Shown one piece after another: positions 4,017 to 56,114 of a stretch of 64,000 nucleotides of DNA. A program made the translations under genes and the position numbers. Every line of letters begins with the position of its first letter. The first letter of the stretch is position 1. The stretch is from Alphaproteobacteria bacterium (GTDB lineage Bacteria > Pseudomonadota > Alphaproteobacteria > Rs-D84). Below the pieces are notes generated by a model that was not told where the DNA came from, did not search any database, and saw only the letters and a list, made by a program, of their open reading frames with translations. The stretch lies in the NCBI GenBank assembly GCA_017463185.1, contig JAFTPS010000003.1, positions 27,113 through 91,112 on the forward strand, read 5' to 3'.

Positions 4017-4130
4017 ATCAGACCTTGATTTTTAGGGTGATTTATGGTATAATATTGACCGTGGATGCAGACAGACTGCGTCCGTTTTTTTATTTAAACA
4101 ACTGGTGACATAATGAAAAGGATTTTTTAT

Positions 4131-32041: not shown

Positions 32042-32068
32042 AAAATCCCCGAAAGGGGATTTTTTAAT
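32042..32068 (+). terminator. intrinsic terminator of dnaK
   Basis: aaaaatccccgaaaggggatttttt. Confidence 0.7.
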
Positions 32069-32114
32069 AGTAGCTGTGCAAAGTTCAATTATGGCAGCCA
32101 CTAATAAACAATAA

Positions 32115-32840
32115 CTAATTCCCCATACTGATTGTGGCGAACAAGGCGGTGCGAAATGTGGCGTTGTCCGCAAATTTTGTTGCGCAATTGGTGACACAAT
32201 TTGTATCACAATTTGTGGAAGTTGCAAATGTTGTGGCATATGCCCACTGGGATACGGCTGGCGACATTATTCGGCACCAACAATATAAATTTTCGGTGGC
32301 GGTATCACTTAGTTCAACCGCGAATATACTGTCGCCGACACTGCCGGTGCTGATACCACAATGCGATATACCATTGACCGTGGTGTTGCCCGTTTGTCCA
32401 GACCAATTTATTGTGTTTATAGATGGGGTAATTTTTGTTGTTGTGGCGTCCGGGTCAAGCACACCACACAATTTTAATTCGCTTGTGTGATATGTTGTAT
32501 TATTGTGTTTTATATGAATTGTATCCGTTGCCGTTCCCGCCACCAGATTTGCAAAACATTCTGTATCACCCAGTTTTATGTGTATTGATGGCGTTGTGTA
32601 TTGTTCCCGATAAAGTGATGTTGCGGTGTCTTGGCTTGTGCGTATTACCGTTGCACCAGCGGAACATGCCAAATCCGGCGAGTTTTCCGACGATACAACC
32701 CCCAGCGTTTGATGTGTACATATTGGCGACAGTTCAACCGCAGCATTTCGCGTGATTGCAATTGTCCCAGTTGGACAGATGGCGGCACGCACACCGTCAC
32801 AACAACACAGAACTATTAAAAAACTTAGCGTGCGATACAT
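32115..32840 (-). CDS. secreted cysteine-rich protein
   Basis: 241 aa, signal peptide MYRTLSFLIVLCCCDGVRA; 1-nt overlap with upstream paralog; Cys/Thr-rich. Confidence 0.5.
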   Translation of the reverse strand: MYRTLSFLIVLCCCDGVRAAICPTGTIAITRNAAVELSPICTHQTLGVVSSENSPDLACSAGATVIRTSQDTATSLYREQYTTPSIHIKLGDTECFANLVAGTATDTIHIKHNNTTYHTSELKLCGVLDPDATTTKITPSINTINWSGQTGNTTVNGISHCGISTGSVGDSIFAVELSDTATENLYCWCRIMSPAVSQWAYATTFATSTNCDTNCVTNCATKFADNATFRTALFATISMGN

Positions 32841-33265
32841 TATTCCAACAGGTTATTTAACATTGTTTTGCGAAAAGTTTGGTCCATATCGTTATCAAAT
32901 ATCATTCCGTTGCGACAACCGCGGGCGCAATTTTTTACACACATATTTGCGGACGTGTATGTATAGCGTGCAACCCATTTTGATATTGCTGGCACGGTCA
33001 TTTTACACCAGCAATACAGATTTTTACTGGTTGTACCACTGGTGCTGATATTAGTTGTACTGTCCGTATCGGCGGTGCCGGATGTTGATGCGCATCGGCC
33101 AACTATGTTGACGGTTGTGCCGTCGCAGTCAACGGTACAATCGGATGTACTATAACAATCATCGCTGGTAGTGCATACCGTGGACGCGGCCAATTTTATA
33201 CACTGGGTCAGGGCATGAACATTTGTGCAAAAAAATAAAATTACTGTGAATAAAAAAATTCTCAT
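32840..33265 (-). CDS. secreted cysteine-rich protein
   Basis: Start MRIFLFTVILFFCTNVHA at 33265 (RBS aagggat) preferred over track start 33301 which lies inside the leader; Cys-rich. Confidence 0.45.
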   Translation of the reverse strand: MRIFLFTVILFFCTNVHALTQCIKLAASTVCTTSDDCYSTSDCTVDCDGTTVNIVGRCASTSGTADTDSTTNISTSGTTSKNLYCWCKMTVPAISKWVARYTYTSANMCVKNCARGCRNGMIFDNDMDQTFRKTMLNNLLE

Positions 33266-33470
33266 ATCCCTTATGCCCCTGCCCCCGATTTTGTGCAGCA
33301 AAAGACCGCCGAAAAATTCAGACGGTCAGGAGGTTGGAAACAATTGTTGGAATTGTGTCGCTTATTCAGTATATTCGCAACCCTCCTGACCCCGGGTTCA
33401 GGAGATTTTTACGTCGCAATAATAAAAAATACGCACGGCGTGCGTAATAAGTATATATTCCGACGCCAAC
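33266..33470 (-). promoter_or_regulatory. conserved structured 5' leader (copy L3) with terminator hairpin
   Basis: Sense: ctcctgaacccggggtcaggagg / gttgcgaatatactgaataag... / aacctcctgacc / gaccgtctgaatttttcggcggtc+ttttgc. Confidence 0.5.
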
Positions 33471-33572
33471 AAAGGGTTTCCACACCCCAATACGACAATA
33501 CGTCATATCAAAGTGTATTCTAGCGTATTTTATATTTGTTGGCAAGAGAAAACGCCCATTTGGGCGTTTATA

Positions 33573-34652
33573 TTATTTAGTTTCACCAATATATATACCC
33601 AAATGTGGCGCAACATCCAACAGGGGGTCATCAGGCGACACATAAGCATTAGAGGTCAACAAATCTGGGATTTTTGGGTCACGAACCGTTTCGCCCGCCG
33701 CAACAAAATCCGACAATGCGACGGTTTTACACCCATTGCAATCCAGTGCCGTCATAACATATGTTTCACCATTATCAATTGCATGCAACGCACAATCCGC
33801 CAGGCGCGACGCCAGGATTCGGTCTGCGGCGGTTGTGTCACCAGCACGCTGGGTATGTTCTGGGAACGCGGTGCGATTGACTATACCAGCGGCGGTCAGT
33901 TTGCGTGAAATCATATCCGCAGGTTTCCCCGAGTGGCCTCGCAGGGATATACCCTCTGACACGATAATAACGCCATAGTCTGTTGGTGCATGCTTTATAT
34001 GGCGAACCAATGTGTCTATATCAAATTTAATTTCCGGGATTAAAATTGCCGTGGCCCCGACCGCAACACCGGCATTCAGGGCCAATTGCCCACAATCGCG
34101 CCCCATAGCCTGGACCACGAACCAGCGATGATGACTGCGTGCGGTCAGCATCAGTTGGTCGCAAAATCCGGTCAGTTGTTGCACCGCGGTATCAAATCCG
34201 ATTGTGCGGTCGGTCATAGGCATATCCATATCTATGGTTTTTGGGATACAGACCAATTGCAAATCACGATATGTTTCACGATTGGCCCATGCCAATGACA
34301 GACTGCCATTCCCACCAATCAAAATCAAAGCATCTAAATCCAATGCACGCAATCCACGATATAATTTTTTATTAAATGCCGCAATTCTTCCATTTTCGGC
34401 TGCGGTTTCAAAATTTAATGCACCAGCGTGACCATTGTGCAGAAAACTGCCCGCAAGGCGCGCGTTTTCAATCGGCAATGTATGTTCGTCAAATTCCAGT
34501 ATCCGTGGCGGATTTTCACATAATCCATCCGTCCCGTCCAGGATACCAACAACCGTCCAACCACGCAGTATTGCACCACGCACCACGCGATGAATAACCG
34601 TGTTCAGGCCACTGCAATCGCCACCAGTTGTCATAATTCCTATCTTTTTCAT
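33573..34652 (-). CDS. pfk: 6-phosphofructokinase family (PfkA-like)
   Basis: MKKIGIMTTGGDCSGLNTVI.., ..KTIDMDM.. (TIDxD), MGR motif; note GGNGS where GGDGS is usual. Confidence 0.8.
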   Translation of the reverse strand: MKKIGIMTTGGDCSGLNTVIHRVVRGAILRGWTVVGILDGTDGLCENPPRILEFDEHTLPIENARLAGSFLHNGHAGALNFETAAENGRIAAFNKKLYRGLRALDLDALILIGGNGSLSLAWANRETYRDLQLVCIPKTIDMDMPMTDRTIGFDTAVQQLTGFCDQLMLTARSHHRWFVVQAMGRDCGQLALNAGVAVGATAILIPEIKFDIDTLVRHIKHAPTDYGVIIVSEGISLRGHSGKPADMISRKLTAAGIVNRTAFPEHTQRAGDTTAADRILASRLADCALHAIDNGETYVMTALDCNGCKTVALSDFVAAGETVRDPKIPDLLTSNAYVSPDDPLLDVAPHLGIYIGETK

Positions 34653-34763
34653 ATTCCCCCCGTTTTTTCGTGTAGAATTATATCACAAATAAGTTGACAA
34701 AGAAATATATTTTGGAATAATTTGTCCAAGAAATATTTAATCTTATCCACCGGGGGTTTTAAT

Positions 34764-35906
34764 ATGGTAAAAAAGAATAACTCAAACACAAATATGGGAA
34801 GAACCAAGCGTTCAACCGATGATTTAATCAACGATGCAATTGCGCAACAAAATGATTGGCAGGAAAATCGCCGTGAATACACACGAGGATTTTTGAAGTC
34901 TTTGAATATGTTTGCGCGCAAATCCCCTGAAAATGAATCTGTGGACAAGGCCGAAATTGAAAAGGCGCGCAATCGTCGCACGGGTTTGGTGGCGTATTGG
35001 TTTCCTATTGCATGTGCAATAATTGTTATATTTATTGCAATTTGGGTTGCATTTATTCGCACAAATGCCCAGCCTCGCGTGGTGGTAGTGCCCGCAATCC
35101 CAGCCCCCGTCGTCCAAGAAATCAAACGCGATACAGTTCCGACATTTGATATTGTGCGTATTGAAAAAGACGGAAATATCGTTATTGCAGGTCGTTGGTT
35201 GCCACACCAGAATATATCAATTATGGTAAACAACAAAATTATTGCAACTGAACGCACAGATTACAGTGGCGAATTTGTCTATGCCCCGACCACACCGTTT
35301 GCACCAGGCAACTATACAATAGCCCTGTTGGGAACAGACCCGGAAATCAAATCAGACGATAAAGTTTTTATTTTTGTTTCCGACAAAGGACATGAAAATT
35401 CTATTTCCCTGTTGATGACCAAGGACGGCAGTACATTATTACAGGCCCCAACGATGCTGCACGATGGTGATTTGGTGGTATCAAAAATTGACTATCTGGA
35501 CACAGGGCGCATTGTGGTGACTGGCGATGCATTTCCGCGTCTGCGTGTGTCCATGGCATTGGATGGTAAATATATGGGTTTTGCGCGTGTTTCCGACCAT
35601 CGCCATTTTGGTTTGGGTGCGGATGTGGGCGAACTGGAATCGGGACGCGAATATGAATTGGCGGTACGTCTGCACGACGGGGATGGCCACGCGGTTGCAA
35701 CCGTAAAACATAATTTCGTTATGCCGGAAATGACGGGCGATGACGATACATTCTATACCGTGCGTCGCGGCGATTGCCTGTGGATTATTGCGCGCAATTT
35801 CCTGCGCCGTGGGGTATTATTCAGCATTATTGCCGAACGCAATAATATTGAAAATCCTGATCTGATTTACCCGAAACAATTATTGCAAATTCCAACAAAA
35901 AAATAA
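34764..35906 (+). CDS. membrane-anchored LysM domain protein
   Basis: N-terminal TM helix (WFPIACAIIVIFIAIWVAFI), C-terminal LysM (YTVRRGDCLWIIARNF...YPKQLLQIP); ATG 34764 with GGGGG RBS. Confidence 0.6.
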   Translation: MVKKNNSNTNMGRTKRSTDDLINDAIAQQNDWQENRREYTRGFLKSLNMFARKSPENESVDKAEIEKARNRRTGLVAYWFPIACAIIVIFIAIWVAFIRTNAQPRVVVVPAIPAPVVQEIKRDTVPTFDIVRIEKDGNIVIAGRWLPHQNISIMVNNKIIATERTDYSGEFVYAPTTPFAPGNYTIALLGTDPEIKSDDKVFIFVSDKGHENSISLLMTKDGSTLLQAPTMLHDGDLVVSKIDYLDTGRIVVTGDAFPRLRVSMALDGKYMGFARVSDHRHFGLGADVGELESGREYELAVRLHDGDGHAVATVKHNFVMPEMTGDDDTFYTVRRGDCLWIIARNFLRRGVLFSIIAERNNIENPDLIYPKQLLQIPTKK

Positions 35907-36745
35907 TGAATACGGATAAAATTAGTTTTGCTTTAAAAATTACCAATTGGTGCAATATGAATTGTACCCATTGCAGCGAATACAGCAATGCGCAAATTGC
36001 ACCAAATATTATGCCCTTGGACAAAGTTGAAAAATACATCGGGGAATTTAATGCAATACCAATGGACAAATGGGAATATATGGTCTTTACTGGGGGCGAG
36101 GCCATGGCCCCCTATTACCACAAACAGACAGAATATATTCCAAAGTGTTTAGATTTCGCCGGACAATTAAAAATGGCACCATTTATCAAGACAAATGGTG
36201 CGTGGGGCATCAATGATACGATGCGAACAAAAATTCTGCGTGATTGTGCGGGCGCGGCATACAGGAACGACATTTTATCATCATTGGATATATCGGTTGA
36301 TGAATTTCATAACAACACCAAAGCGGTTGTAAAAATTATCAATGATGTTGTACGCAGTGATTATCTGGCCCCAGCGGTACGGATATCATTGGTTGGACTA
36401 AACACTCGTAAATCACGAGTTGATTTTGCTAATCTAATAGAAACATTGCGTCAAACCGGATTAAAGGTTGAATGGCGTCAAGACGGTTTGTTGGTCGTCA
36501 CTGTACCTGGGGTTAGAGGTGTACGATTGTACTATGACTTGTGGACGAATGTCGCCAATGTAGGACGAGCAAAAGACAATGCACTGGGGACATATACCCC
36601 AAATGGTCAACCAGATTTTCAAACGGGACATTGTTTCCAGATTGATAATAACGACATTGCAACATTGAATTATTATCATCGCACCCCGGTCAATAACCGC
36701 CCGGTATTTGATGTTGTAAAAGAATTAGTCACAAAGACCAAATAG
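35906..36745 (+). CDS. radical SAM domain protein
   Basis: CNMNCTHC = CxxxCxxC cluster motif at N-terminus; 1-nt overlap with LysM gene. Confidence 0.55.
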   Translation: MNTDKISFALKITNWCNMNCTHCSEYSNAQIAPNIMPLDKVEKYIGEFNAIPMDKWEYMVFTGGEAMAPYYHKQTEYIPKCLDFAGQLKMAPFIKTNGAWGINDTMRTKILRDCAGAAYRNDILSSLDISVDEFHNNTKAVVKIINDVVRSDYLAPAVRISLVGLNTRKSRVDFANLIETLRQTGLKVEWRQDGLLVVTVPGVRGVRLYYDLWTNVANVGRAKDNALGTYTPNGQPDFQTGHCFQIDNNDIATLNYYHRTPVNNRPVFDVVKELVTKTK

Positions 36746-36753
36746 TTTTTATT

Positions 36754-37323
36754 ATGGACACAGAAAATCAAATTGATAAAGGCACAACACTGCAACAGCG
36801 TAACGCTGAATATTATGCACACAACAAGCAAACTATTATTCAACGTTCTAAAAATTACTATCAGAAAAACAAACAACTATTGCGCCCCAAACGCAGAACA
36901 TACGAGAAAAATTATCGCGAAAAACACAAAGATTATATCAAACAAAGAAAACATATCTGGGATACAGAAAACGCACAAGCCTGCAAGGAATATGCCGCAA
37001 AACGGTATCGCATAGTAAAGGAAATGACGCAACGGGCCGCGTTCGTATGTCCCAGTTTTGTATTCCTGAGTCAAGTACGCAAAACAAGTATAGAAACATA
37101 TAAATTGGCCTATGGGCAAAACGAACGTGTGATTCCTAAAATCGCAAAACTATGCCCTGCTTTGGAAAAAATGAGTCCTGGCATATGCCCGTTGGTTCGG
37201 CGCGACTTTGAAACAGTGGAACAAATGACAGAAGTTTGCCCAATGAAACGAGCGTTTTTAATTCCGCGGGCTGCGGATGCTATCACACAATGTGCCAGAA
37301 CTTTGCGTGAACAAATGCGTTAA
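36754..37323 (+). CDS. hypothetical basic protein
   Basis: 189-aa ORF, Lys/Arg-rich N-half, Cys pairs in C-half; third gene of LysM-rSAM cluster. Confidence 0.35.
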   Translation: MDTENQIDKGTTLQQRNAEYYAHNKQTIIQRSKNYYQKNKQLLRPKRRTYEKNYREKHKDYIKQRKHIWDTENAQACKEYAAKRYRIVKEMTQRAAFVCPSFVFLSQVRKTSIETYKLAYGQNERVIPKIAKLCPALEKMSPGICPLVRRDFETVEQMTEVCPMKRAFLIPRAADAITQCARTLREQMR

Positions 37324-37352
37324 AAATCCCACCATTTGGTGGGATTTTTTCT
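37324..37352. terminator. bidirectional intrinsic terminator
   Basis: aaaaatcccaccatttggtgggatttttt. Confidence 0.65.
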
Positions 37353-38604
37353 AATACCAGCCACGTAATTTCATTGCGGTGGCTACGCGTTTTATAGAGT
37401 GCATATAGGCAGCTTCACGCATAGAAACATTGTATTCACATTTGATTTTATAAATGGCATCAAACGCGTCACGCATTGCACGGTCTTCTTTGGTGGCTAC
37501 CTCGGCCTCGTCCCAGTAATAGCCATAACGATTCTGGACCCATTCAAAATACGAAACCGTGACCCCGCCCGCATTTGCCAAAATATCTGGCACAATGGTG
37601 ACGCCACGTTCGCTTAGTATTTTTTCACCGTCCAGTGTTGTTGGACCGTTTGCCCCCTCTACCACCAGATTGGTTTTAATCAATGGCGCAGTATCTTTGT
37701 TGATTGTGTTTTCCATAGCGCACGGACACAATACATCTACATCCAATCCCCAGAACTGGTCCGTGGTAATTTCTGTTGCGGATGGATATCCTTTGATACT
37801 GCCACCGTTTTCTGATTTAAATTTCATCAACGCGTCAATATCCAGGCCATTTTCATTATAAATTGTCGTATTCCATTCGGCAATGGCGACTATTTTTGCG
37901 CCCATATCGGCGGAACATTTTGCGGTGAATGAACCGACATTTCCAAATCCCTGGATTGCGATTTTTGCACCACGCATTTCTTTGCCCATCGTTTTCAGGG
38001 ATTCGCCGATAATAATTGAAATCCCCAGCCCGGTTGCCGGTGTGCGCCCCTGGGACCCCATAAGTTCAACGGGTTTGCCGGTAAAGGTTCCAAATGACTG
38101 TTCGCCAGACAATTTGATGTATTCATCAATAAACCATGCCATAATTTGACCGTTGGTATTTACGTCTGGGGCGGGAACATCCATCTTTTCGCCCAGGATT
38201 GGATAAATCGCATCAACATAACCACGGCACAGGCGTTCTAATTCGCCAGCAGACAAGGTCTTGGGGTCAACGATAATGCCGCCTTTGCCCCCGCCATATG
38301 GGATGCCGGTGACGGCGCATTTGAATGTCATCCAAATAGATAGGGCTGCAACCTCGTCCCGCGATACCATTGGATGGAAACGCACACCACCCTTAGATGG
38401 ACCAATCGCGGTGTTATGCTGGGCGCGAAAGCCCGTAAACACACGGACCGAGCCATCATCCATTTTTACAGGGATGGAAACTTCCAGCATTCTTTGCGGA
38501 TTTTTCAAAATTTCATACACATCGTTTGGCAGCCCCAATCGCTCGCATGCAACCTTTACGCGACTTTGCGCACCAATCAATGGATTTAAGTTTTCATTTG
38601 TCAT
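37351..38604 (-). CDS. gdhA: NAD(P)-dependent glutamate dehydrogenase
   Basis: ..GPSKGGVRFHPMVSRDEV..IPYGGGKGG.. GDH signature; start MTNENLNPL at 38604 with RBS aaggaag (track ORF extends spuriously upstream). Confidence 0.9.
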   Translation of the reverse strand: MTNENLNPLIGAQSRVKVACERLGLPNDVYEILKNPQRMLEVSIPVKMDDGSVRVFTGFRAQHNTAIGPSKGGVRFHPMVSRDEVAALSIWMTFKCAVTGIPYGGGKGGIIVDPKTLSAGELERLCRGYVDAIYPILGEKMDVPAPDVNTNGQIMAWFIDEYIKLSGEQSFGTFTGKPVELMGSQGRTPATGLGISIIIGESLKTMGKEMRGAKIAIQGFGNVGSFTAKCSADMGAKIVAIAEWNTTIYNENGLDIDALMKFKSENGGSIKGYPSATEITTDQFWGLDVDVLCPCAMENTINKDTAPLIKTNLVVEGANGPTTLDGEKILSERGVTIVPDILANAGGVTVSYFEWVQNRYGYYWDEAEVATKEDRAMRDAFDAIYKIKCEYNVSMREAAYMHSIKRVATAMKLRGWY

Positions 38605-38742
38605 AATGTTTTCTTCCTTTTGATATTGGACACTGTTCAATGTACGACCATACGATATAAAAAGCAAGGGGTGGGAAAATAAAAAAGTTTTGTTCTGGAC
38701 AAGTGTGTCAAATTATTATAAAATCACGCCCATATAAGTTCC

Positions 38743-38816
38743 GCGGGCGTGGTATAATGGCAGAACGAAAGCTTCCCAAGCTTTAGACGAGGGTTCGATT
38801 CCCTTCGCCCGCACCA
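38743..38816 (+). tRNA. tRNA-Gly (anticodon CCC)
   Basis: GCGGGCG...CGCCCGC acceptor, anticodon stem AAAGC/GCTTT with loop TTCCCAA, T-loop GGTTCGATTCC, CCA encoded. Confidence 0.8.
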
Positions 38817-38835
38817 CACTTCGCGTCTGCGACGC
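38817..38835. repeat. palindromic direct repeat cacttcgcgtctgcgacgc (left flank of GIY-YIG gene)
   Basis: Repeated at 39168-39185 (cactcgcgtctgcgacgc); core gcgtc-tgc-gacgc is self-complementary. Confidence 0.55.
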
Positions 38836-38916
38836 TTCGTATGGCGCAGCCACAGGGAAAGCTGAGCAGAAACGAGAAGTAGTGCCCTGCGAAGCCTTTG
38901 GCGAAGGGGGGCATAA

Positions 38917-39165
38917 ATGTATTATGTATATTTGATTCAAAGTAAAAACTTTCCAAATCAACGTTATATAGGTTATACAGAAGATTTGAAACAACGACTA
39001 AAAGAACATAATGCAGGAATGTCAACACATACTAAAAAATATGCTCCATGGGACCTGATAACATATGTCGCTTTTTCAAACAAATATGCAGCATTAGATT
39101 TTGAAACTTATTTGAATAAAGGTTCAGGACACGCGTTTGCCAACAAACGTTTATGGACGAAATGA
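38917..39165 (+). CDS. GIY-YIG nuclease superfamily protein (YhbQ/UPF0213-like)
   Basis: MYYVYLIQSKNFPNQRYIGYTEDLKQRLKEHN = canonical GIY-YIG motif; 82 aa. Confidence 0.7.
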   Translation: MYYVYLIQSKNFPNQRYIGYTEDLKQRLKEHNAGMSTHTKKYAPWDLITYVAFSNKYAALDFETYLNKGSGHAFANKRLWTK

Positions 39166-39167
39166 TG

Positions 39168-39185
39168 CACTCGCGTCTGCGACGC
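39168..39185. repeat. second copy of palindromic direct repeat flanking GIY-YIG gene
   Basis: cactcgcgtctgcgacgc; followed by terminator aaacgcccaaacgggcgttttt. Confidence 0.55.
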
Positions 39186-39220
39186 AGCGCAAATACGAAA
39201 CGCCCAAACGGGCGTTTTTG

Positions 39221-39754
39221 TTATATTGTATGCTCGGATTTGGTCTTTGCCATTTGTACGGTTGGCGAAACATCCGATGGCGCGGCCATTTGTGCAACCT
39301 TAGACTGGGCCATTTCCCATTTGCGACGTGGCTCGCCAATAATTTTGTCATAAAATGCATCAACGATAAAATCAAATGCCGGGATGTCTGTTGGTAATTT
39401 TATCGGGGCGATATTGCGCGGGTCGCTGCCACGAATAGCTTTGTCAAACTGACCCTCGGTCAATTGCGCACCATATTCAAAAATCTCACATAATGGGCCG
39501 GCAACATCTGGTCCAACTTCCATACTTTCAAATCCCATTATATTATAGATACGGGCACCCGCCCCTTTTCCATTGTTATAGAAAACTATTTTAGATAATC
39601 CAGACTGTACACGGTAATATGCGCCCTCAGGTTCGTCTGCAACGCGCCGGTCATTTTTATCAATTCGCTCGCCAATTTTTACGATTGCGCGTTTTGATGT
39701 TTCCTGTTTGCGCAACAGCTTCTGTAATTCGTATATTTTATCTATATTTGCCAT
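39221..39754 (-). CDS. hypothetical protein
   Basis: 177-aa ORF with RBS aaagggaaa; no recognisable domain. Confidence 0.35.
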   Translation of the reverse strand: MANIDKIYELQKLLRKQETSKRAIVKIGERIDKNDRRVADEPEGAYYRVQSGLSKIVFYNNGKGAGARIYNIMGFESMEVGPDVAGPLCEIFEYGAQLTEGQFDKAIRGSDPRNIAPIKLPTDIPAFDFIVDAFYDKIIGEPRRKWEMAQSKVAQMAAPSDVSPTVQMAKTKSEHTI

Positions 39755-40069
39755 AGCATATTTCCCTTTTTATACATAATAAAACCGCCATACGGAATCT
39801 GGCGGTCGGGGAGTTGCTAAATCAGTGTATTAGTGATTCTGTCGCTTTCGGGTTGTCCCTGTTGTATAGCAAACAGCTCCCCGACTTATACAAGTCAGGG
39901 ATAAATCACGATACAAAACCATCGGAATGACATCAGATAACGATGCCATTAACAATTTTGCACCGAATACACTGGGCCTAGCACAGCCCCGAACCCATAT
40001 CCCTATGGATTCAATTCATAGTTTATCACTAAATTTCAGAAATGTAAATTGAATATATTGTTTGATGTT

Positions 40070-41155
40070 TTACTCAAACACGCTTTTGACATCTGTCATT
40101 ATATCACCGGCGCGTTTGTCGGATATGCCGACACGATGTGCGACCGCCAACATATCGGCACCTGTGATGTCTATGCCTTTGCCATTTACAGATGTTGTGT
40201 GTTCCCAAATTCCAGGTGTTCGGGTTAAGTCAAAGACAGGGGAAACATGCCAATCACCGTCATCATATAAAAATGCAAAATTTTTGGTGTGGTCATCGGT
40301 ATTGTTTATCCAAATGTTAAACACCATAAGGCGGAACATTTTTTCAACTTCAACCATATTACGGGTTAATTTCGCAGTCAAAGACAATAAATCAGAATAA
40401 TCAACCACAGGTTGTGTATGGTCTGCGTCCAACAGACCTGCTGCAGAAATCATAAAGACTTTATCGCCATTTGGTTTGCGGTCAAAACGCCGAACCCCAA
40501 AGTATTTTCCATTAAACAATCTATGTTCTGGTGTATCTAGGCCCGCTTTGATTGCAGATTCCATAATATTAAATTCTTGGGCACCAATATCTATTGGGTC
40601 TGTTCGGGCAGGAAATTTGATAATCCAATCCATACCATCAACTTTGCGGAATATTTTTGGACGTGTTCCACCGGACGAGCCACCAATACGAAACAATTCT
40701 TCGGTGATTTTATCTTCTGTGGTTATTGCATTGTCTTCAATGATTTTTCTGACCTGAATTGCAATGTCGTCCAGTTCGGAATCTTTGTATTCTGCAATCA
40801 TTTCAGCAGCAGGTTCAAATTCCAATGCCCCAGGCCCATTTTTACCAACGATTGCCAATCTGTCCAATACAGAAATGCTGTTCGGTGCAATTCCACGCCG
40901 CTGTAATTCACGATTTACCAATAATTGTCCCCAACTGTCTGGCAAAGAATCATTAAAAACACCAAACACACCGTCAAATGGATTGCGATTTGCAATAAAT
41001 ACGCGCTTTTCCAATGGTAATTTAAATGGTGATATACTAAAACCATTTTCCAGCCAACCTGCGTCATATTCAAATGCCATAAGGTTATCAGGGGTCAATG
41101 CCAAACGCCCAACCACCATGTCATGATATTTAACCGTCAGAATTTTATTTTGCAT
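40070..41155 (-). CDS. hipA: HipA-family serine/threonine kinase toxin
   Basis: HipA N-domain (..FDGVFGVFNDSLPDSWG..), catalytic NTDDHTKNFAF motif; start MQNKIL at 41155 overlaps hipB stop by 11 nt. Confidence 0.8.
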   Translation of the reverse strand: MQNKILTVKYHDMVVGRLALTPDNLMAFEYDAGWLENGFSISPFKLPLEKRVFIANRNPFDGVFGVFNDSLPDSWGQLLVNRELQRRGIAPNSISVLDRLAIVGKNGPGALEFEPAAEMIAEYKDSELDDIAIQVRKIIEDNAITTEDKITEELFRIGGSSGGTRPKIFRKVDGMDWIIKFPARTDPIDIGAQEFNIMESAIKAGLDTPEHRLFNGKYFGVRRFDRKPNGDKVFMISAAGLLDADHTQPVVDYSDLLSLTAKLTRNMVEVEKMFRLMVFNIWINNTDDHTKNFAFLYDDGDWHVSPVFDLTRTPGIWEHTTSVNGKGIDITGADMLAVAHRVGISDKRAGDIMTDVKSVFE

Positions 41156-41426
41156 GTTCGCCACCGTCCCGTACAACATCAAATATAGACTGATAATTTT
41201 TACGCACAAACAGGTTGTCAAAATCGCCTTCGTATCCCAGCGCCTGCGATAACTTAATCAGTGCAGTTAATGATATTTCCCCGGTTCGTTCAAATCGCTT
41301 GATTGAGCCCAAAGATACCCCAGAACGCTGGACCAATGTCATTTGCGACATCTTGGCGGTGCGTCGAACGGTACGGAACCTGTCTTTTATTCTGGTTTTG
41401 ATAGATAATATATTATCTATATTCAT
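41145..41426 (-). CDS. hipB: HTH XRE-family antitoxin HipB
   Basis: 93-aa Cro/C1-type HTH (..MSQMTLVQRSGVSLGSIKRFERTGE..) immediately upstream of and overlapping hipA. Confidence 0.65.
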   Translation of the reverse strand: MNIDNILSIKTRIKDRFRTVRRTAKMSQMTLVQRSGVSLGSIKRFERTGEISLTALIKLSQALGYEGDFDNLFVRKNYQSIFDVVRDGGEHAK

Positions 41427-41638
41427 TGTTTGTGCCTGTGTTTAGATATTATATTGTCTATAATTATAATGCAGCGTTGTAGATTTTGCAATAAAAAATC
41501 ATACAAAATCGTTTACAAACGACGGAAAACACGATAAATTATAAAAGCGCCAAGCAAAGTGTCAGGCAAACTGATAAAAACTGCTGAAAATCGGGTTGAA
41601 ATGGGCAGAAAAATGCCAAAAATGGCGTAAACACAGTC

Positions 41639-41654
41639 CCCTTCGCCCGCACCA
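41639..41654 (+). repeat. 16-nt duplicate of tRNA-Gly 3' end (cccttcgcccgcacca): candidate attR of tRNA-Gly islet
   Basis: Identical to 38801-38816; 2.8 kb downstream of the tRNA. Confidence 0.5.
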
Positions 41655-41751
41655 AAAATAGAGCCGACCATTGTGGTCGGATTTATTTTTGGGTTGCCTC
41701 AACAAAAATATCCCCGAACGAGTCGCGCCAGCAGCGGGACGGTTTGGATTT

Positions 41752-43092
41752 TTAAAACTTTTGACGCATAGTAAATTCTGCGCTGAATTTATCAAATTCA
41801 CGTTGCCAAATGTTTGAATCGCGATGCGTGTATCCCAATACTATCGTTGGAACAAATCCCCAAATATCAAATTTGTTATTAGACAAAGATACAGAATAGC
41901 GCTGGGTAAAATCGTGTTCTGTTATTTGTGAAAAACGACCATTATGCACAACCCATTTGTCGTCATCGTATGCTGTCCAATAAAAGTATGGTTCGGCATA
42001 TATGTGAAAACCAAAGGGTAATTCCACCCCCAGTCCAACACCAAATCCAGGTTGCCAATATGAATATTCGGGGGCATTTGCAGATTCGCGTAATACACCA
42101 ACGCGCGCCGCGGCATACAATCGCGCATTAAATGAATAAGAAAATCTCAATTGCGATGAATATGTATTACCAGTCAGGAAATCATCATATAAATCGTATG
42201 AATTATTCAAGTATTGCAAGTATAGACCACCAGATAATTTTCGGGTAAAGTCATAGTTCAAATCCAGTTTTGCACCGACCGACCAATTATATCGTTCCCA
42301 ACCATACCAACGACGATTCCAGACACCGGCCAACCAAATATCCCCACGTTTCCATATATATCGCGGGCCCGAACCAACCGACAGGTATAAATCGTCATAA
42401 TCAGAAATATCATAAATATTGCTGTATATAAACGCGTCTGATTTCCATCGCCAATGGTCGGACAGTTTGAATTCATAATTTCCACCCAATGAAAAATTAT
42501 AACCAATTGCAGATTCTGGGGCGCTTAAATCACGACACATTGGTCCAAACATTGTGTTTACACACTCGGTCCCACCAACCGCATTATTTATATTATTATC
42601 TGGTGCAGCACCAAAATTAAACCAAACATTCCAATTTTTATTTTGGCGCACAATCCACCGGTAATAGTTCATTACTTTACGCACATTATCCGGTAAATCC
42701 GCCCCCGCCATAGCCAGTCGCAAATGATAATCCGCCCGATACCATTGTTTTGTGTGCATATAACAAATTGCCAATTCAAAACGGATACGCGCCAAATCAG
42801 GCTGCTCGTCCAATATTTTATGAAATATTTTTATCGCGGTATTATAATCACCACGACGCGCCGCAATTTGCCCAAGTAAAAACCATCGTTCAATTTCCAA
42901 TGCAGGATTACCTGTTTGCGGAACGGTTATCAATATTTGTTCTGCTTTGTCGTAGTTACCAGCGTCTACAAAATTACCCGCCAACTGTATAACCTGAATT
43001 GTATCCAATTGTATGGTTTTTGTATTGTCCGTTTCTGCCCAGACAAAGCCAGGCAGAAACAACAGGCAAAGAATGATAGCCAGACGTTTCAT
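41752..43092 (-). CDS. surface lipoprotein assembly modulator (Slam, DUF560-like): signal peptide + TPR region + C-terminal beta-barrel
   Basis: Signal peptide MKRLAIILCLLFLPGFVWA, TPR-like ~150 aa, aromatic-rich alternating beta-strand region ending ..FTMRQKF (terminal Phe); 3 nt downstream of a GGSGGG-type lipoprotein gene, as in Neisseria SLP-Slam pairs. Confidence 0.6.
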   Translation of the reverse strand: MKRLAIILCLLFLPGFVWAETDNTKTIQLDTIQVIQLAGNFVDAGNYDKAEQILITVPQTGNPALEIERWFLLGQIAARRGDYNTAIKIFHKILDEQPDLARIRFELAICYMHTKQWYRADYHLRLAMAGADLPDNVRKVMNYYRWIVRQNKNWNVWFNFGAAPDNNINNAVGGTECVNTMFGPMCRDLSAPESAIGYNFSLGGNYEFKLSDHWRWKSDAFIYSNIYDISDYDDLYLSVGSGPRYIWKRGDIWLAGVWNRRWYGWERYNWSVGAKLDLNYDFTRKLSGGLYLQYLNNSYDLYDDFLTGNTYSSQLRFSYSFNARLYAAARVGVLRESANAPEYSYWQPGFGVGLGVELPFGFHIYAEPYFYWTAYDDDKWVVHNGRFSQITEHDFTQRYSVSLSNNKFDIWGFVPTIVLGYTHRDSNIWQREFDKFSAEFTMRQKF

Positions 43093-43095
43093 TGA

Positions 43096-44808
43096 TTATC
43101 TGGTTCCACCAAAGCCCAATTCAACATTTATATTACCGTCACCGCCATTGTCATTAGGACGCCAATTTCCATTATCGTTGACCCATTCCCAGTCAGAAGA
43201 ATTATCCAGGCTATAACGCATTGTTGCGGTGGCTTCAGTTGGGGTGTTATTATCCCCATAATATCCAGCAGTAAATGCCATAGTTTCAGAATCCTTGCTG
43301 ATTAGGTTGCCTTGGTTATCAAATTCAGGTACAACATTATTGTCGCTGGTCAACCCAGATGCTGATGTCACAAGTGTAAAATCATATGTTCGCAAGCTGC
43401 CATCGCCATCAACATCAAATGTTTTTGTTACACGGTCATTATCGTTTGTTTTACCATCACCATTTCTGTCACCAAAAACAACCAATTTATTTGTACCATC
43501 TGCGGATTGCACAGCTTGAATTTTATACCAATTGTCTGAAAAATCTGCGGTTAGTGTTTGGGTGCCTGTATTATCAAATACCAATGTAGCATTGGTATCG
43601 GTCATCATATCGTCTGTCAACGGCACATCAATACCATTTCCATTATATGCCAAACCATCGCGATATCTGACATCTGCAAATGCGGTTCCTGTAAATGTTA
43701 TACTGCCATCATTTGCCAATGTTTTCATATCTTCATTTGATATTTTCTTGGACGCATATCCACCAGCAAAAGGAGTAATCATAACACCCCAAGCATCCAA
43801 AAATTCTCGCACTTCCTGTTTACCTGCATCGTTCAATCCTGTTGTGGCAAACGTTGCGTTTTTAAAATCATTTTTCATGATACCAAAATCGGCATATTTC
43901 AGTCCCAGTTGTTTGCCATAACTGATATATTCGTCATACAATTCAAGATTGATGCTGCCACTAGCGTCGGTTATATTTTCTGTGGATACAATATTTGCAT
44001 CTGGATCTTCGTCGTTCATTTGACTCAAAGGAATCATACTTGCTTGGACAAAGATATTTGTATTATCCCGACGCACAATCACACCATCTGTATCATCATC
44101 AACTGGATATTCAGGCGAACCATCGTCATCATATCTCGTAAAACTGACAGAACCATCATCGTTATGAACCAGATAATCTGGATATTCATACGATACAATT
44201 TTACCATTTTTATCAACATTAAACTTGATTCTTTGCATTTGTGATGTGTATAAGTCCACACCATCCAATGTCATAATTTCTGTTCTTTGTTGCAGGTCTG
44301 CCAACGTTTTTTCAAAATTACTTTCCTTGATACGGCGTGCGGTCTCGGTTGCGTCACCACCGACAAAGCAATACATATCATCCATCAGCTTCAATGCAGA
44401 TTTAATTTTGTTTTTATCCAATTTTGATTTGTTGAACATTTCAACAATATCGCTTTCAGATGTTGTGTCTTCAACCAGCCAAGCCGCCAAATCAATCAAT
44501 TCACGCGCTGTGTCATATTCTGTATCCCCTGTTGGGGTTTTAGGCACAAACGCCCCGCGGGTTGTCGCAACACGTGATAAATTTACATCAGCCGCATAAT
44601 CACCCAATTTATGCGCAACATAACGTGCAACCTGATATTCACTGTTTGAAACCATACCTGTAATTTCTGAATTACTGGTCGCAACCGTATCAACAAATGA
44701 AGAGTTTGGAACAACTGGTTTTTCAAGCATCGCTGGGGCAGAACCACCACCTGAACCGCCACAAGCCGCCAATGCCAAAACAGAGGTTAAAAATGCAATT
44801 TTTTTCAT
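43096..44808 (-). CDS. surface lipoprotein (SLP-type; lipobox LAACGGSGGGS)
   Basis: MKKIAFLTSVLALAACGGSGGGSAP: lipobox followed by flexible Gly/Ser linker typical of Slam-dependent surface lipoproteins; 570 aa. Confidence 0.55.
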   Translation of the reverse strand: MKKIAFLTSVLALAACGGSGGGSAPAMLEKPVVPNSSFVDTVATSNSEITGMVSNSEYQVARYVAHKLGDYAADVNLSRVATTRGAFVPKTPTGDTEYDTARELIDLAAWLVEDTTSESDIVEMFNKSKLDKNKIKSALKLMDDMYCFVGGDATETARRIKESNFEKTLADLQQRTEIMTLDGVDLYTSQMQRIKFNVDKNGKIVSYEYPDYLVHNDDGSVSFTRYDDDGSPEYPVDDDTDGVIVRRDNTNIFVQASMIPLSQMNDEDPDANIVSTENITDASGSINLELYDEYISYGKQLGLKYADFGIMKNDFKNATFATTGLNDAGKQEVREFLDAWGVMITPFAGGYASKKISNEDMKTLANDGSITFTGTAFADVRYRDGLAYNGNGIDVPLTDDMMTDTNATLVFDNTGTQTLTADFSDNWYKIQAVQSADGTNKLVVFGDRNGDGKTNDNDRVTKTFDVDGDGSLRTYDFTLVTSASGLTSDNNVVPEFDNQGNLISKDSETMAFTAGYYGDNNTPTEATATMRYSLDNSSDWEWVNDNGNWRPNDNGGDGNINVELGFGGTR

Positions 44809-45132: not shown

Positions 45133-45810
45133 ATGAATATTGATGACATTATAAACGCATTTTATAAACTGCATGATTATAAGGGAAAATTCAGATTTAA
45201 TACCCCAGAATATATCAGTTTCCATAGGAATCTCACGGATTTTATCTATGAAAACCACCTGGAAGATACTATGTATTGGAAGAAAATATCCGACAATTTA
45301 TTGTATACAGCAACGGAATATATGACACTGCGAGAAGCTGGCATTATATCAAAAAATCTAGAACTTTTACGACGCCATATTTTACAGACTCGAGACGAAC
45401 CTTTCTGGAAGTATATCCATCCTTTGTTATCGCCAATAACACAACCAAAATTCCAAGCACAACAATATGCCGATTGTGTAGAATCTGCATTCAAGGAAAT
45501 TAACTCTAGGTTAAAAGAGTTATATCTTAAATTGCGAAATACGGAACTAGACGGCAGCACCCTAATGAATCATGTATTTTCGCCTAATAACCCGGTGTTA
45601 ACTTTTGAGAACATAGAAACACAGACTGGCAAAGATGTCCAAATTGGATATATGAACATATTTGCTGGCGCAATGACAGGCATAAGAAACCCCAAGGCAC
45701 ACGGAAATCAGATTATATCGAAGGACATGGCTATAAAGCGATTGATTTTTGCTAGTTTATTAATGGACAAAATAGATGAAGCCATATCGTATTCCAACAT
45801 AGAAGAATGA
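45133..45810 (+). CDS. hypothetical protein, possibly TIGR02391/Hypoth_Ymh family (abortive-infection-like)
   Basis: C-terminal ..FAGAMTGIRNPKAHGNQ.. resembles conserved RNxxAHG block of Ymh family; assignment from memory, low certainty. Confidence 0.35.
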   Translation: MNIDDIINAFYKLHDYKGKFRFNTPEYISFHRNLTDFIYENHLEDTMYWKKISDNLLYTATEYMTLREAGIISKNLELLRRHILQTRDEPFWKYIHPLLSPITQPKFQAQQYADCVESAFKEINSRLKELYLKLRNTELDGSTLMNHVFSPNNPVLTFENIETQTGKDVQIGYMNIFAGAMTGIRNPKAHGNQIISKDMAIKRLIFASLLMDKIDEAISYSNIEE

Positions 45811-45908: not shown

Positions 45909-46967
45909 ATGCCAAATAACCGCGATATTATGATTACACCAGAAATACTGAACGGTATTGCCGAGATTGATGCGTTTAATGGTGCGTGGACCGGTGGGGC
46001 GGTAAAACTGTCCGCGGATGAACTGCGTGTTATGCGCAGGGTCGCAACGATTGAATCTGTTGGCTCATCCAATCGCATAGAAGGCAACCGTATGACAGAT
46101 GCAGAGATTGAAGTGCTATTCGCTAATATCAATCGTCAGTCATTTGCCACACGTGATGAGCAGGAAGTTGCAGGCTATTCAGATGTAATCAATACCATAT
46201 TTGAAAACTATGCGTCTATACCGCTTAGCGAGAATTATATTAAGCAGTTGCATAAAATATTATTGAATTACTCTGACAAGGACACCCGCCATCGTGGGGA
46301 ATATAAAAAAGACAGTAATCGTGTTGCCGCTTTTGATGCAAACGGTAATGAAATCGGTTCTATATTCGAAACCGCTATACCATTTGATACTCCACGTCTG
46401 ATGAGCGAAACAGTAAAATGGGTCAATGACGCATTGGCAGACAAGTTCTTTCACCCTATTATTGCTATTGGGGTATTTGTGATACACTTTCTGTCCATCC
46501 ACCCATTTACCGATGGAAACGGGCGTCTGTCACGCGCATTGACTGTTATGCTGATGCTGAAAAGTGGATACACATATATGCCATATGCATCTATGGAATC
46601 TATTATAGAAGCAACCAAGGACGCATACTATCGTGCATTACGCGGCACACAAAAAAACATCTGGGGCGACAAAATCAATTATGAACCTTGGCTGACTTTC
46701 TTTGTTCGTGCCTTGGTTGCACAAAAGCGCCAATTGGAAGATAAAATTGCGAAGGCACGTGGCACAAGTGCCGCAAAATTATCATCTACTCAGAATGAGA
46801 TTCTGAAACTGTTTTATAAAGCACCAGAATTGACCATGTCACAGATTATATCTGCGATGGATAAAAATCCAGAAACCATTCGCAAGGCGGTACAGGCACT
46901 GGTAAAACGAGGACACATATCAAAGCAAGGCACGACCCGTGGCGTGTTTTACACTTTGCATAAATAA
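45909..46967 (+). CDS. fic: Fic/Doc family protein
   Basis: Canonical Fic motif HPFTDGNGRLSRAL; C-terminal winged-helix-like region. Confidence 0.8.
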   Translation: MPNNRDIMITPEILNGIAEIDAFNGAWTGGAVKLSADELRVMRRVATIESVGSSNRIEGNRMTDAEIEVLFANINRQSFATRDEQEVAGYSDVINTIFENYASIPLSENYIKQLHKILLNYSDKDTRHRGEYKKDSNRVAAFDANGNEIGSIFETAIPFDTPRLMSETVKWVNDALADKFFHPIIAIGVFVIHFLSIHPFTDGNGRLSRALTVMLMLKSGYTYMPYASMESIIEATKDAYYRALRGTQKNIWGDKINYEPWLTFFVRALVAQKRQLEDKIAKARGTSAAKLSSTQNEILKLFYKAPELTMSQIISAMDKNPETIRKAVQALVKRGHISKQGTTRGVFYTLHK

Positions 46968-47987: not shown

Positions 47988-48317
47988 TTAAAACATCAAC
48001 ATCTGTTGCGTGCCGATTTTTTCGGCAACTGGTGGTGAACCAACCAAGAAAAACATATCTGCAAATTGCTTTTCTGTGACAGTTAACACACGAACCGACC
48101 CTGATGGTGGTGCCAAGTGACGCAAACGCTGAACATGCTTGTCAACTGCAGCAGCCCCTTTGACCATGCGAGAATATATAGAGAACTGCATCATATAATA
48201 CCCGTCGTTTAACAAATCGTTTCTGAACCGTGTGGCTGCATGGCGTTCACGCCGTGTACCAACCGGCAAATCAAAAAATACTAGTATTCGCATAAACTTT
48301 TCCCCTGATTGATACAT
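47988..48317 (-). CDS. cas2: CRISPR-associated endoribonuclease Cas2
   Basis: ..MRILVFFDLPVGTRRERHAATRFRNDLLNDGYYMMQFSIYSR.. Cas2 fold; alternative start MRIL at 48293. Confidence 0.8.
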   Translation of the reverse strand: MYQSGEKFMRILVFFDLPVGTRRERHAATRFRNDLLNDGYYMMQFSIYSRMVKGAAAVDKHVQRLRHLAPPSGSVRVLTVTEKQFADMFFLVGSPPVAEKIGTQQMLMF

Positions 48318-48318
48318 A

Positions 48319-49233
48319 TTAGTTATCCGTATTTACAATTTTAGGCGCAGATGTAATACAAGGTAATTTTAAGGCTTGTAAATCCTTGGCCTTGAAAGAT
48401 GACGCAATTGATTCTGAATACAACGGTATCGCATTCATAATAGAATGCCGCATACCATTAAACGTGCAACTGTGCAACAAGACAGATACTAATTGTCGCT
48501 TGATATCCGGCGTCAATTTGTCTGCGTCGCCAAAATCCATATTAAACACAATATAATCCAGAAAAGGACGCCACGGTTCAATCAAATCATCAGCCAGACA
48601 AAAATTATCCAGCTTATTGCAATGATGTATACCATAAAACGGCAACATACCCGCGCCAACAATACTGCGCGCGACACATCCACGCAAAATCGCATAACCA
48701 TAATCCAGCGCATGATTGCGAATATCATTGTCATTACTGCGATTGAAATTTTCCCATAATGCCGACCAATAAATACGCGCAGCAACCCCTTCTAGGTTTT
48801 GAGCGTCGCCTGATTTAACATTATCTGCCAAAATATCTAGCTTTTTATACACAGCATTGTCGCACAGTCGTAATACCGCAGATTGATTGCGAATTTTTTG
48901 CACAACGATATTTTGCCACATACGTTTGCGCAGTGGCTGCGACGTTTCTATCTGAGCCCAGGCAGTTTCTGTGTAGCGTGAATTTTTATGAAACGGAAAG
49001 AACGCGCCATTCGGCATATGCGATGCATCACAGGAAAATACAACAGCGCCGTTTTCCGCCAACGACGACAATAATGTGGACGTTATCTGAATTTGCGGTG
49101 ACTCTAAAATGACGACAGAAATATCTTCTAGTGGGACGTTTTGTGTTTCACCACTGTCTGCCGTCCAGTTTAATTGTTTATTCCTGACACAAATCCGCGA
49201 CGGTTTGGACAGGGTAAGAATGCGCCAAGACAT
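48319..49233 (-). CDS. cas1: CRISPR-associated endonuclease Cas1 (type II)
   Basis: 304 aa, Cas1 conserved residues, between cas9 and cas2. Confidence 0.85.
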   Translation of the reverse strand: MSWRILTLSKPSRICVRNKQLNWTADSGETQNVPLEDISVVILESPQIQITSTLLSSLAENGAVVFSCDASHMPNGAFFPFHKNSRYTETAWAQIETSQPLRKRMWQNIVVQKIRNQSAVLRLCDNAVYKKLDILADNVKSGDAQNLEGVAARIYWSALWENFNRSNDNDIRNHALDYGYAILRGCVARSIVGAGMLPFYGIHHCNKLDNFCLADDLIEPWRPFLDYIVFNMDFGDADKLTPDIKRQLVSVLLHSCTFNGMRHSIMNAIPLYSESIASSFKAKDLQALKLPCITSAPKIVNTDN

Positions 49234-49286
49234 TTGAATGCCCCGTATTTGTATCCTTTCCCCCAGTCCAAATGTTATATAGTGCG

Positions 49287-55982: not shown

Positions 55983-55996
55983 TGGCGGAGACGAAG
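55983..55996. repeat. 14-nt partial copy of tRNA-Ser 3' end (tggcggagacgaag)
   Basis: Identical to 56170-56183; third occurrence of tggcggag with 45001 and the tRNA itself. Confidence 0.4.
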
Positions 55997-56114
55997 TATT
56001 CCCTCGCCCCGCGGATGGCGGGGCTGCGGGGCATTCCTGACGGTTTGACGATGTTTCACTTGTCAAACCTACTCATTGTCGAACCCGGCAATCATAGATT
56101 GCGAACGTTTCGTC

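Follow-up and report, generated by a model that had tools for sequence, protein, structure and literature searches.

A modular tRNA-Gly-anchored islet bearing hipBA, a GIY-YIG gene and an orphan gene with a structured leader RNA in an alphaproteobacterial genome

What is the origin of a 2.8-kb stretch of DNA that begins at the very end of a tRNA-Gly(CCC) gene, closes with an exact copy of the last 16 nt of this gene and encodes no integrase? This question is raised by a locus of an uncultured gut alphaproteobacterium of the Rs-D84 lineage (assembly GCA_017463185.1, contig JAFTPS010000003.1, positions 27,113 to 91,112 of the forward strand), a stretch of 64,000 nt hereafter called the window, for which a first-pass annotation had described a tRNA-linked islet carrying a GIY-YIG nuclease gene, an orphan open reading frame (ORF), here ORF177, and a hipB-hipA pair. 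The 16-mer, CCCTTCGCCCGCACCA, hereafter the core O, has two exact copies in the window, both on the + strand, against a chance expectation of 0.04 matches with up to two mismatches, and two or more such matches arose in none of 100 shuffles. The repeat is exactly 16 nt long, the preceding base being T at 38800 and C at 41638. The duplicate of the tRNA 3' end is thus sound, and the four enclosed ORFs correspond to those of the first-pass annotation. We consider it probable that the islet (38817-41654, 2,838 bp) is DNA acquired by conservative site-specific recombination in the last 16 nt of tRNA-Gly(CCC), and that it now persists as a remnant resembling the cis-mobilisable elements (CIMEs).

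The comparison set consisted of 19 metagenome-assembled genomes (MAGs) of uncultured gut Alphaproteobacteria, 'Candidatus Enterousia' or similar, with glutamate dehydrogenase (GDH) 80-88% identical to that of the window; in all 19, tRNA-Gly(CCC) adjoins the GDH gene (compared loci are designated by L and a number). In 10 of these relatives (L003, L004, L005, L006, L008, L011, L012, L015, L017 and L019), the CCA end leads directly into a terminator, the sequence being AAAAT..CCGRCC..GYCGG..TTTATTTTT, and in L107, a Logan contig from another sample, the tRNA-Gly 3' end is likewise joined directly to the homologous terminator. In the window, the same terminator hairpin stands after the second 16-mer, and about 60 nt past it align to L006, L011 and L017, including ..GAGTCGCGCCAGC..GGTTYGG. 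As the tRNA is followed by its terminator in the relatives, this is the ancestral state, and the islet was therefore inserted between the two, whereby the 16-nt core became duplicated. It is a genuine insertion into the 3' end of tRNA-Gly, delimited by a second copy of this end. The unoccupied tRNA-Gly site that the first-pass annotation had proposed to look for hence exists in ten related species and in L107, and a synteny conserved among relatives is contradicted by the cargo, which is found in none of the 19. Indeed, a tblastn search within 10 kb of their tRNA-Gly genes returned no homologue of ORF177, HipA or HipB, nor of Slam and SLP from beyond the islet.

Extra copies of the tRNA 3' end (16-20 nt), lying 94-183 nt downstream in five relatives (L001, L006, L012, L015 and L017), indicate that the site has been used recurrently. 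L109 carries two tandem O copies, 69 nt apart, and the 3' 47 nt of tRNA-Gly are present in phages of other proteobacteria, as in attP sites; compared with phages and plasmids, the islet DNA gave matches through the tRNA only.

On its left, the islet opens with a palindromic hairpin, P' (CACTTCGCGTCTGCGACGC), and on its right it closes with an arm, P, containing phased A-tracts and GAAAATSG-like repeats, which abuts O directly and may hold sites for a recombinase or a bending protein. Arm P is about 90% identical in L109-L111, while L108 contains an 87-nt arm, 82% identical to window 41567-41653, which abuts a 15/16 copy of O. The order in L108 is an Abi-like gene, arm P, O, hairpin P' and the ORF177 cassette; the hairpin that follows O there is the same as in the window, and related hairpins follow O in L002, L006 and L133. 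With the empty attB junction defined as ...GGTTCGATTCCCTTCGCCCGCACCAAAAATAGAGCCGACC and the circular or tandem attP junction as ...GGCGTAAACACAGTCCCCTTCGCCCGCACCACACTTCGCGTCTGCG, the P-O-P' junction of L108 is as expected for a tandem array of att-bounded elements or for an excised circle.

These boundaries suggest the following course of events. An integrase-mediated crossover would have taken place within the segment from the T-stem to CCA, and the incoming DNA would have brought its own copy of the 16 nt, so that the tRNA stays intact (attL would consist of the tRNA 3' end and hairpin P'). The former 3' end, together with the native terminator, would have been shifted 2.8 kb downstream (attR would be arm P, the 16-mer and the terminator). 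The remnant would later have been remodelled through gain and loss of cassettes. No recombinase was detected in the four islet ORFs by Pfam, PHROGs, NCBIfam and PADLOC scans, nor a recombinase domain among the other window ORFs scanned with Pfam, in agreement with the earlier statement that no integrase is present. Downstream of tRNA-Gly in the 19 relatives, where a conserved LysM/PFK/DnaK block is found along with genes for small HNH endonucleases, GIY-YIG proteins and others, no integrase was identified either. As it has no recombinase in cis, the islet would be non-autonomous and move again only with an integrase acting in trans, and the earlier suggestion of an element either decayed or mobilised in trans belongs, given the missing integrase, to the right class of explanation.

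Several observations weigh against such an integration. The enzyme itself is postulated, no integrase using this 16-nt core having been identified anywhere we looked, and the P-O junction pattern AAAATNGCNT-N10-CCCTTCGCCCGCACC had no match in metagenome_contigs and viral_contigs. The about 15 same-species contigs are all occupied, with neither an empty site nor a circular junction among them. L108 comes from another strain and its contig is only 2.7 kb long, such that a tandem array and a circle are indistinguishable. The base composition is not atypical (GC 0.38-0.44 in the islet versus 0.40-0.46 in the flanks). Moreover, in L107 the ORF177 cassette stands beside type I restriction-modification (R-M) genes, beyond the tRNA terminator and outside the att-bounded interval, so that at least the ORF177 module moves by another route. 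The homologues of the islet cargo belong to the same clade as the host.

That the islet is still active, its attL and attR being functional and served by a tyrosine integrase from elsewhere in the genome or from a co-resident element, would agree with the 16/16 identity of the O copies, with the 82-90% conservation of arm P among three elements with different cargo, with the P-O-P' junction of L108 and with the tandem O copies of L109. We nevertheless attribute a low probability to this view, since no integrase was found in the scanned window ORFs or downstream of tRNA-Gly in the 19 relatives, every same-species contig is occupied, and the serine recombinase encoded in L110 has 98% identical copies in unrelated contexts without hipBA. 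The latter enzyme, a 199-aa protein encoded beside hipBA, was considered as the islet recombinase and discarded on account of these copies; neither the window nor any tRNA-Gly locus of the 19 relatives contains it. Its homologues number at least 7,948 at E<=1e-40, many of them 77-85% identical across Alphaproteobacteria MAGs, and some of the near-identical copies in unrelated contexts adjoin genes for glycosyltransferases and aminotransferases; a role as a global invertase is possible.

The first-pass annotation had treated the islet as one coherent element. It is instead a mosaic of three modules with separate histories, each of which occurs apart from the others elsewhere: the GIY-YIG cassette, the leader with ORF177, and hipBA. 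This modularity invites an account by stepwise accretion at a hot spot, in which hipBA, arm P and the right 16-mer would have arrived in one event and ORF177 and the GIY-YIG cassette later and by other routes, for example recombination between short stretches of conserved sequence such as hairpins, terminators and leaders, or repair after nuclease cutting; the 2.8-kb unit of today would then never have formed a single circle. Such a history would readily explain why ORF177 lies by type I R-M genes in L107, why hipBA and arm P stand beside AAA_13 and resolvase genes in L109-L111, why the GIY-YIG gene is alone between tRNA and terminator in L002, why the GIY-YIG cassette, with its own repeat of 18/19 nt, is precisely missing in L108, and why mini-insertions with tRNA 3'-end duplicates are found in five relatives as well as at tRNA-Ser and tRNA-Gln. 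However, L108 joins P' and ORF177 through O to arm P, and both ends thus behave as the ends of att-bounded units; at least one O-mediated event is still needed, and stepwise accretion, which we find unlikely, would largely refine the integration proposed above and not exclude it.

The GIY-YIG cassette, composed of a 5' untranslated region (UTR), the ORF and a second hairpin copy, is flanked by CACTTCGCGTCTGCGACGC and CACT-CGCGTCTGCGACGC, which form a direct repeat of 18-19 nt that is exact over 15 nt. L108 is 92% identical to the window from 40012 down to 39171 and then runs straight into the hairpin and O; the GIY-YIG cassette is precisely what it lacks, and only one copy of the hairpin is left. 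L002 has a GIY-YIG gene, 73% identical, placed exactly between the CCA end of the tRNA and the native terminator, without an O repeat. Throughout the 2.3 Mb of compared loci, each of the six independent GIY-YIG homologues has a tRNA gene 91-316 nt upstream in the same orientation, this tRNA being Gly-CCC in four cases, Gln-CTG in one and Val-TAC in one. Their products are 80-82 aa long, the L010 copy being truncated to 65 aa, and in four of them (window, L002, L006 and L133) a conserved hairpin followed by the motif TTCGTATGGCGCAGCC precedes the gene. No terminator separates tRNA-Gly from the GIY-YIG gene, the next one being the hairpin common to the tRNA/GIY-YIG transcript and ORF177, which makes co-transcription with tRNA-Gly likely; the gene is probably transcribed from the tRNA promoter. 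Of note, the trailer of tRNA-Arg(CCG), at 3984-4016 of the window, carries TACTTCGCCAAGGCTTCGTATGGCGCGGCCACA, which agrees with the left end of the cassette at 20/21 positions; no GIY-YIG gene comes after it, and it may be the footprint of a lost cassette.

Single-domain GIY-YIG proteins of the YhbQ/UPF0213 type are known. Compared with free-standing GIY-YIG genes, the islet gene is distinguished by its 82-aa product without a DNA-binding domain, by its hairpin repeat flanks and by its invariable position just downstream of, and co-oriented with, a tRNA gene; this strict link of a minimal GIY-YIG gene to tRNA genes is catalogued neither in Rfam nor in the literature searched. With T4 SegB, located in the T4 tRNA cluster, it shares a GIY-YIG domain and a physical tie to tRNA genes (PMC2330249). 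A nuclease-driven homing, in which the GIY-YIG enzyme (or the HNH enzyme of relatives) cuts beside tRNA genes and repair copies the cassette with linked DNA, could hence be envisaged: the homologues lie downstream of and co-oriented with a tRNA in 6/6 cases, a fragment of the left end of the cassette follows tRNA-Arg, HNH endonuclease genes abut tRNA-Gly in L009, L013, L017 and L019, and SegB is a GIY-YIG homing endonuclease encoded within a tRNA gene cluster (PMC2330249). Homing would not, however, make a 16-nt target duplicate 2.8 kb away, the 82-aa protein has the catalytic domain only, L108 possesses the O-P' junction and ORF177 without GIY-YIG, and homing would explain at most the 350-bp cassette and not the whole islet; as the origin of the islet, it is highly improbable.

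The second module, the leader and ORF177, spans about 39198-40048 and ends in a terminator. The ORF177 product had no family match in Pfam, PHROGs, NCBIfam and PADLOC, and only three homologues among 5.8e9 proteins and nine among 1.84e9 representatives; matches to giant proteins were rejected as noise from Ig-like/YDG repeats. It is 99% identical to P0001 (L107, L108), where the DNA is 92-95% identical, which suggests purifying selection. The designation 'hypothetical gene' given previously was right in that an orphan ORF is present; what had been overlooked is a large and conserved structured RNA that precedes it. This leader of about 235 nt has a sole match in Rfam, to RF02221 (sRNA-Xcc1), which is sub-threshold (38.8 bits, where the gathering score is 53; E=1.8e-5 on 401 nt) and covers the model in full (positions 1-87); the gathering score was reached by none of 20 metagenomic leaders tested. 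sRNA-Xcc1 is characterised by a closing helix around two hairpins; the consensus fold of 74 sequences instead draws the 3' hairpin region into a long-range helix.

The leader is widespread. A region of about 260 nt, 71-79% identical, precedes different ORFs in L105 and L108 (two copies in the latter), and a metagenome scan with a pattern of the core retrieved at least 120 loci, in which nhmmer found 89 leaders, 81 of them with the 5' extension; the family thus counts at least 80 metagenomic members. These units are found in gut alphaproteobacteria and mobile DNA. An ORF starts 37-75 nt after each leader, and the ORFs fall into 57 unrelated clusters, about half with signal-peptide or lipobox starts; the one in L229 has a lipoprotein N-terminus similar to that of the 570-aa lipoprotein encoded in the window. 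The alignment of 74 sequences displays in order a TATAAT box, a 5' hairpin, the long-range helix, the Xcc1-like core, a CCGCC..GGCGG hairpin with a U-tract, and a ribosome-binding site (RBS). Its cells are paired at 95.6% versus 43-55% with partners slid, double changes number 430 versus 52-81, and the covariation score is 0.519 versus at most 0.12; neither the percentage paired nor the covariation score was reached in 500 shuffles. The leader of the window folds with -99.4 kcal/mol (z=-6.5). We considered whether the helix could reflect the DNA inverted repeats of an invertible promoter and rejected this reading: G-U pairs are frequent (GU:45 and GU:17 at two positions) and non-standard pairs, among them the A-C mismatches that the other strand would require, nearly absent, which points to an RNA structure, and the TATAAT box lies outside the repeats.

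Two mutually exclusive pairings of the invariant G-rich and C-rich segments of the leader compete. The first joins the invariant GUCGGGG to CUCCCCGAC (the closing helix of Xcc1), and the second combines CCCUGAC/GUCGGGG with 5'-GGGG/CCCC. The first overlaps the terminator stem at its three lowest base pairs, which makes a switch acting by attenuation plausible. We propose, albeit tentatively, that the leader may constitute an undescribed class of cis-regulatory RNA acting as an attenuation switch on diverse accessory genes, and, separately, that the GIY-YIG unit may be a mobile cassette for transcribed tRNA trailers. According to published work, sRNA-Xcc1 precedes the toxin gene symE in integron cassettes of Xanthomonas (bioRxiv 10.1101/2025.06.18.660453), and in APSE phages it precedes an ORF6N gene (PMC7313666). 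Here, too, the matching 3' core stands ahead of an accessory gene that varies and is carried by mobile DNA; unlike RF02221, it sits within an RNA of about 235 nt with a TATAAT promoter of its own, a long-range helix that covaries and a terminator immediately ahead of the RBS. This covarying family, which extends sRNA-Xcc1 and is catalogued neither in Rfam nor in the literature searched, is the most novel by-product of the analysis. A link between leaders and tRNA genes was considered and found unconvincing, as only 12 of the 89 leaders have a tRNA in the 1.5 kb upstream of them, close to the expectation from local tRNA density. Logan contigs from several samples break at one point of the leader, L084, L085, L088, L106 and L107 ending at the equivalent of window 39885/39886 and L102 at that of 39985, which fits a multi-copy 5' half of the leader in these genomes.

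In the third module, the end of hipB overlaps the start of hipA by 11 nt, and the catalytic motifs DDHTKNF and PVFDL of HipA are intact in an alignment to HipT(Lp) 8ezr. L109-L111, from pig gut, share with the window, at about 90% nucleotide identity, the segment from 41654 to 40026 (O, arm P, hipB and hipA) and diverge beyond it into the AAA_13 and resolvase genes. HipA relatives 70-79% identical are common in the clade, in unrelated contexts. As in HipBA type II toxin-antitoxin systems, the helix-turn-helix (HTH) gene overlaps the downstream gene of the HipA kinase, which has both HipA domains and the catalytic motif; unlike in known HipBA, the 361-aa HipA is far from solved HipA/HipT structures (best E=8e-9), and the islet hipBA scores far below the cut-off of the NCBIfam equivalogs. 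HipA is thus a predicted kinase toxin and HipB its predicted antitoxin. The pair would most likely stabilise the islet by post-segregational addiction, and may contribute to defence.

The islet belongs to a known and ordinary class, that of tRNA-anchored, non-autonomous islets. Williams (2002) reportedly distinguished a T-loop sublocation class among the integration sites in tRNA genes. Like elements of this class, the islet is inserted at the tRNA 3' end and has supplied a copy of that end which keeps the gene intact, the insert lies between direct repeats of 16-20 nt that start in the T-arm, the native terminator has been moved away from the tRNA, and relatives have empty sites; unlike them, it has no integrase, measures only 2.8 kb, shows no compositional signature and is a modular mosaic. 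CIMEs are cis-mobilisable elements that form accretion arrays at the attachment sites of integrative and conjugative elements (ICEs), for example ICESt1/ICESt3-CIME in Streptococcus thermophilus. The islet resembles them in being flanked by att sites without recombination and transfer genes, in an arrangement with core copies that is tandem in L109 and may be so in L108, and in that any movement would need a recombinase in trans; it differs from ICESt1/ICESt3-CIME in that its attachment site is a tRNA and not fda, and in that no partner ICE or integrase was identified. Even in genomes of about 1 Mb, such as those of these uncultured gut alphaproteobacteria, the 3' ends of tRNA genes serve as landing pads at which defence and addiction modules are shuffled, here hipBA, an Abi-like gene, type I R-M and an AAA_13 gene, and the islet offers a well-resolved case, for which there are empty sites, modules that can be told apart and, in L108, a junction that may be tandem.

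The surroundings of the islet are rearranged as well. In relatives, the gene order is DnaK>, PFK<, LysM>, tRNA-Gly<, GDH>, and in the window it is DnaK>, PFK<, LysM>, rSAM>, orf189>, GDH<, tRNA-Gly>, islet; the tRNA-Gly/GDH unit is thus inverted with respect to the DnaK-PFK-LysM block (window 30146-38816 versus L002-L018), and in L012, L014 and L016 only tRNA-Gly is flipped. Flips of the whole unit or of the tRNA alone indicate that rearrangement breakpoints cluster at the tRNA. To the right of the islet, Slam, SLP, a Ymh-domain gene, a Fic gene and a type II CRISPR-Cas9 locus are absent from the relatives' loci, and this absence, together with the inversion, supports the local plasticity zone postulated earlier, Slam and SLP being missing in all 19 relatives. 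By contrast, the proposal that the SLP-Slam pair is sandwiched between two tRNA-anchored insertions is not upheld: the sole other copy of the tRNA-Ser 3' end, a 14-mer at 55983-55996, is 187 nt away from that tRNA, and no boundary of a tRNA-Ser-anchored island, nor any tRNA-Ser 3'-end copy, was found near 45 kb. In the four relatives where an HNH endonuclease gene abuts tRNA-Gly, this gene (157-196 aa, motif WDH..GG..N..PM..CN..KG) is the first ORF after the tRNA. The features of the islet and of its surroundings, including an ORF with an Mtd_N domain, a giant ORF and a tmRNA elsewhere in the window, are listed in the table.

Table. Positions of the islet features, of other features of the window and of related loci on compared contigs (window positions unless a contig is named).
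Feature	Position	Strand	Basis
Promoter-like site of tRNA-Gly(CCC)	38696-38724	+	promoter scan
tRNA-Gly(CCC), intact	38743-38816	+	ARAGORN; Rfam tRNA 64.3 bits
Left 16-nt core O (attL core), T-stem 3' strand to CCA	38801-38816	+	exact repeat
Left end P', palindromic hairpin, copy 1	38817-38835	+	
GIY-YIG cassette, 350 bp	38836-39185	+	
GIY-YIG ORF, 82 aa	38917-39165	+	PF01541 E=9e-16, residues 1-68
Hairpin copy 2	39168-39185	+	
Bidirectional terminator hairpin	39197-39218		terminator scan; conserved in L107, L108
ORF177, orphan, 177 aa	39221-39754	-	
Promoter and ~235-nt structured leader, then RBS of ORF177	39755-40048	-	Rfam, fold, alignment, promoter scan
Leader promoter	40048-40020	-	promoter scan
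Leader RNA, ~235 nt	39755-40013	-	
sRNA-Xcc1-like core of the leader	39886-39796	-	Rfam RF02221
Leader terminator hairpin with U-tract	39805-39785	-	
hipA, 361 aa, short HipA-family kinase	40070-41155	-	HipA_C PF07804 E=4e-41; Couple_hipA PF13657 E=5e-18
hipB-like HTH antitoxin/repressor, 93 aa	41145-41426	-	HTH_3, HTH_31; weak NCBIfam HipB, Y4mF
Promoter-like sites of hipB	41491-41463; 41565-41538	-	promoter scan
Right arm P	41567-41638	+	
Right 16-nt core O (attR core)	41639-41654	+	exact repeat
Displaced native tRNA-Gly terminator (hairpin 41664-41680 and T-tract)	41655-41692	+	homology to 10 relatives and L107; terminator scan
Remnant of ancestral post-terminator sequence, 5' part of ~150-nt element	41693-41750	+	alignment to relatives
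Slam (SlipAM/TPR_Slam) gene and 570-aa lipoprotein gene, pair	41752-44808	-	
Hypoth_Ymh gene	45133-45810		
Fic gene	45909-46967		
Type II CRISPR-Cas locus, compact	47988-52208	-	
Cas2, 109 aa	47988-48317	-	
Cas1	48319-49233	-	
Cas9, 973 aa	49287-52208	-	
GC-rich post-terminator element at tRNA-Ser	55983-56169	-	
ORF with Mtd_N (major tropism determinant N-terminal) domain, right after tRNA-Arg	4113-4628	+	
Permuted alphaproteobacterial tmRNA, tag peptide AANDNVRLAMAA	8707-9085	-	RF01849, 161.8 bits
Giant ORF, 3,099 aa, after tRNA-Met	17027-26326	+	
GIY-YIG cassette loci elsewhere	L002 3926-4291; L006 9223-9587; L010 9454-9792; L133 7765-8281; L169 5267-5605		
Leader copies elsewhere	L105 7750-8000; L108 1-259 and 1862-2108; L117-L236		
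Serine recombinase, 199 aa	L110 4317-4916	-	
Serine recombinase, 199 aa, further copies	L237-L240		
GC-rich element at tRNA-Gln	L133 7765-7950		
GC-rich element downstream of tRNA-Gly	L003, L006, L011, L012, L015, L017		

Finally, a homologous GC-rich element of about 110-150 nt was observed after the terminators of several tRNAs (Ser, Gly and Gln), usually ending in a copy of the last 14-20 nt of its own tRNA, followed by a second terminator. This layout (tRNA, terminator, element of about 150 nt, 3'-end copy and second terminator) is also that of tRNA-Ser in the window and of tRNA-Gln in L133. The element matches no Rfam family, and it could be either the remnant of an attP devoid of cargo or a gene for a small RNA.

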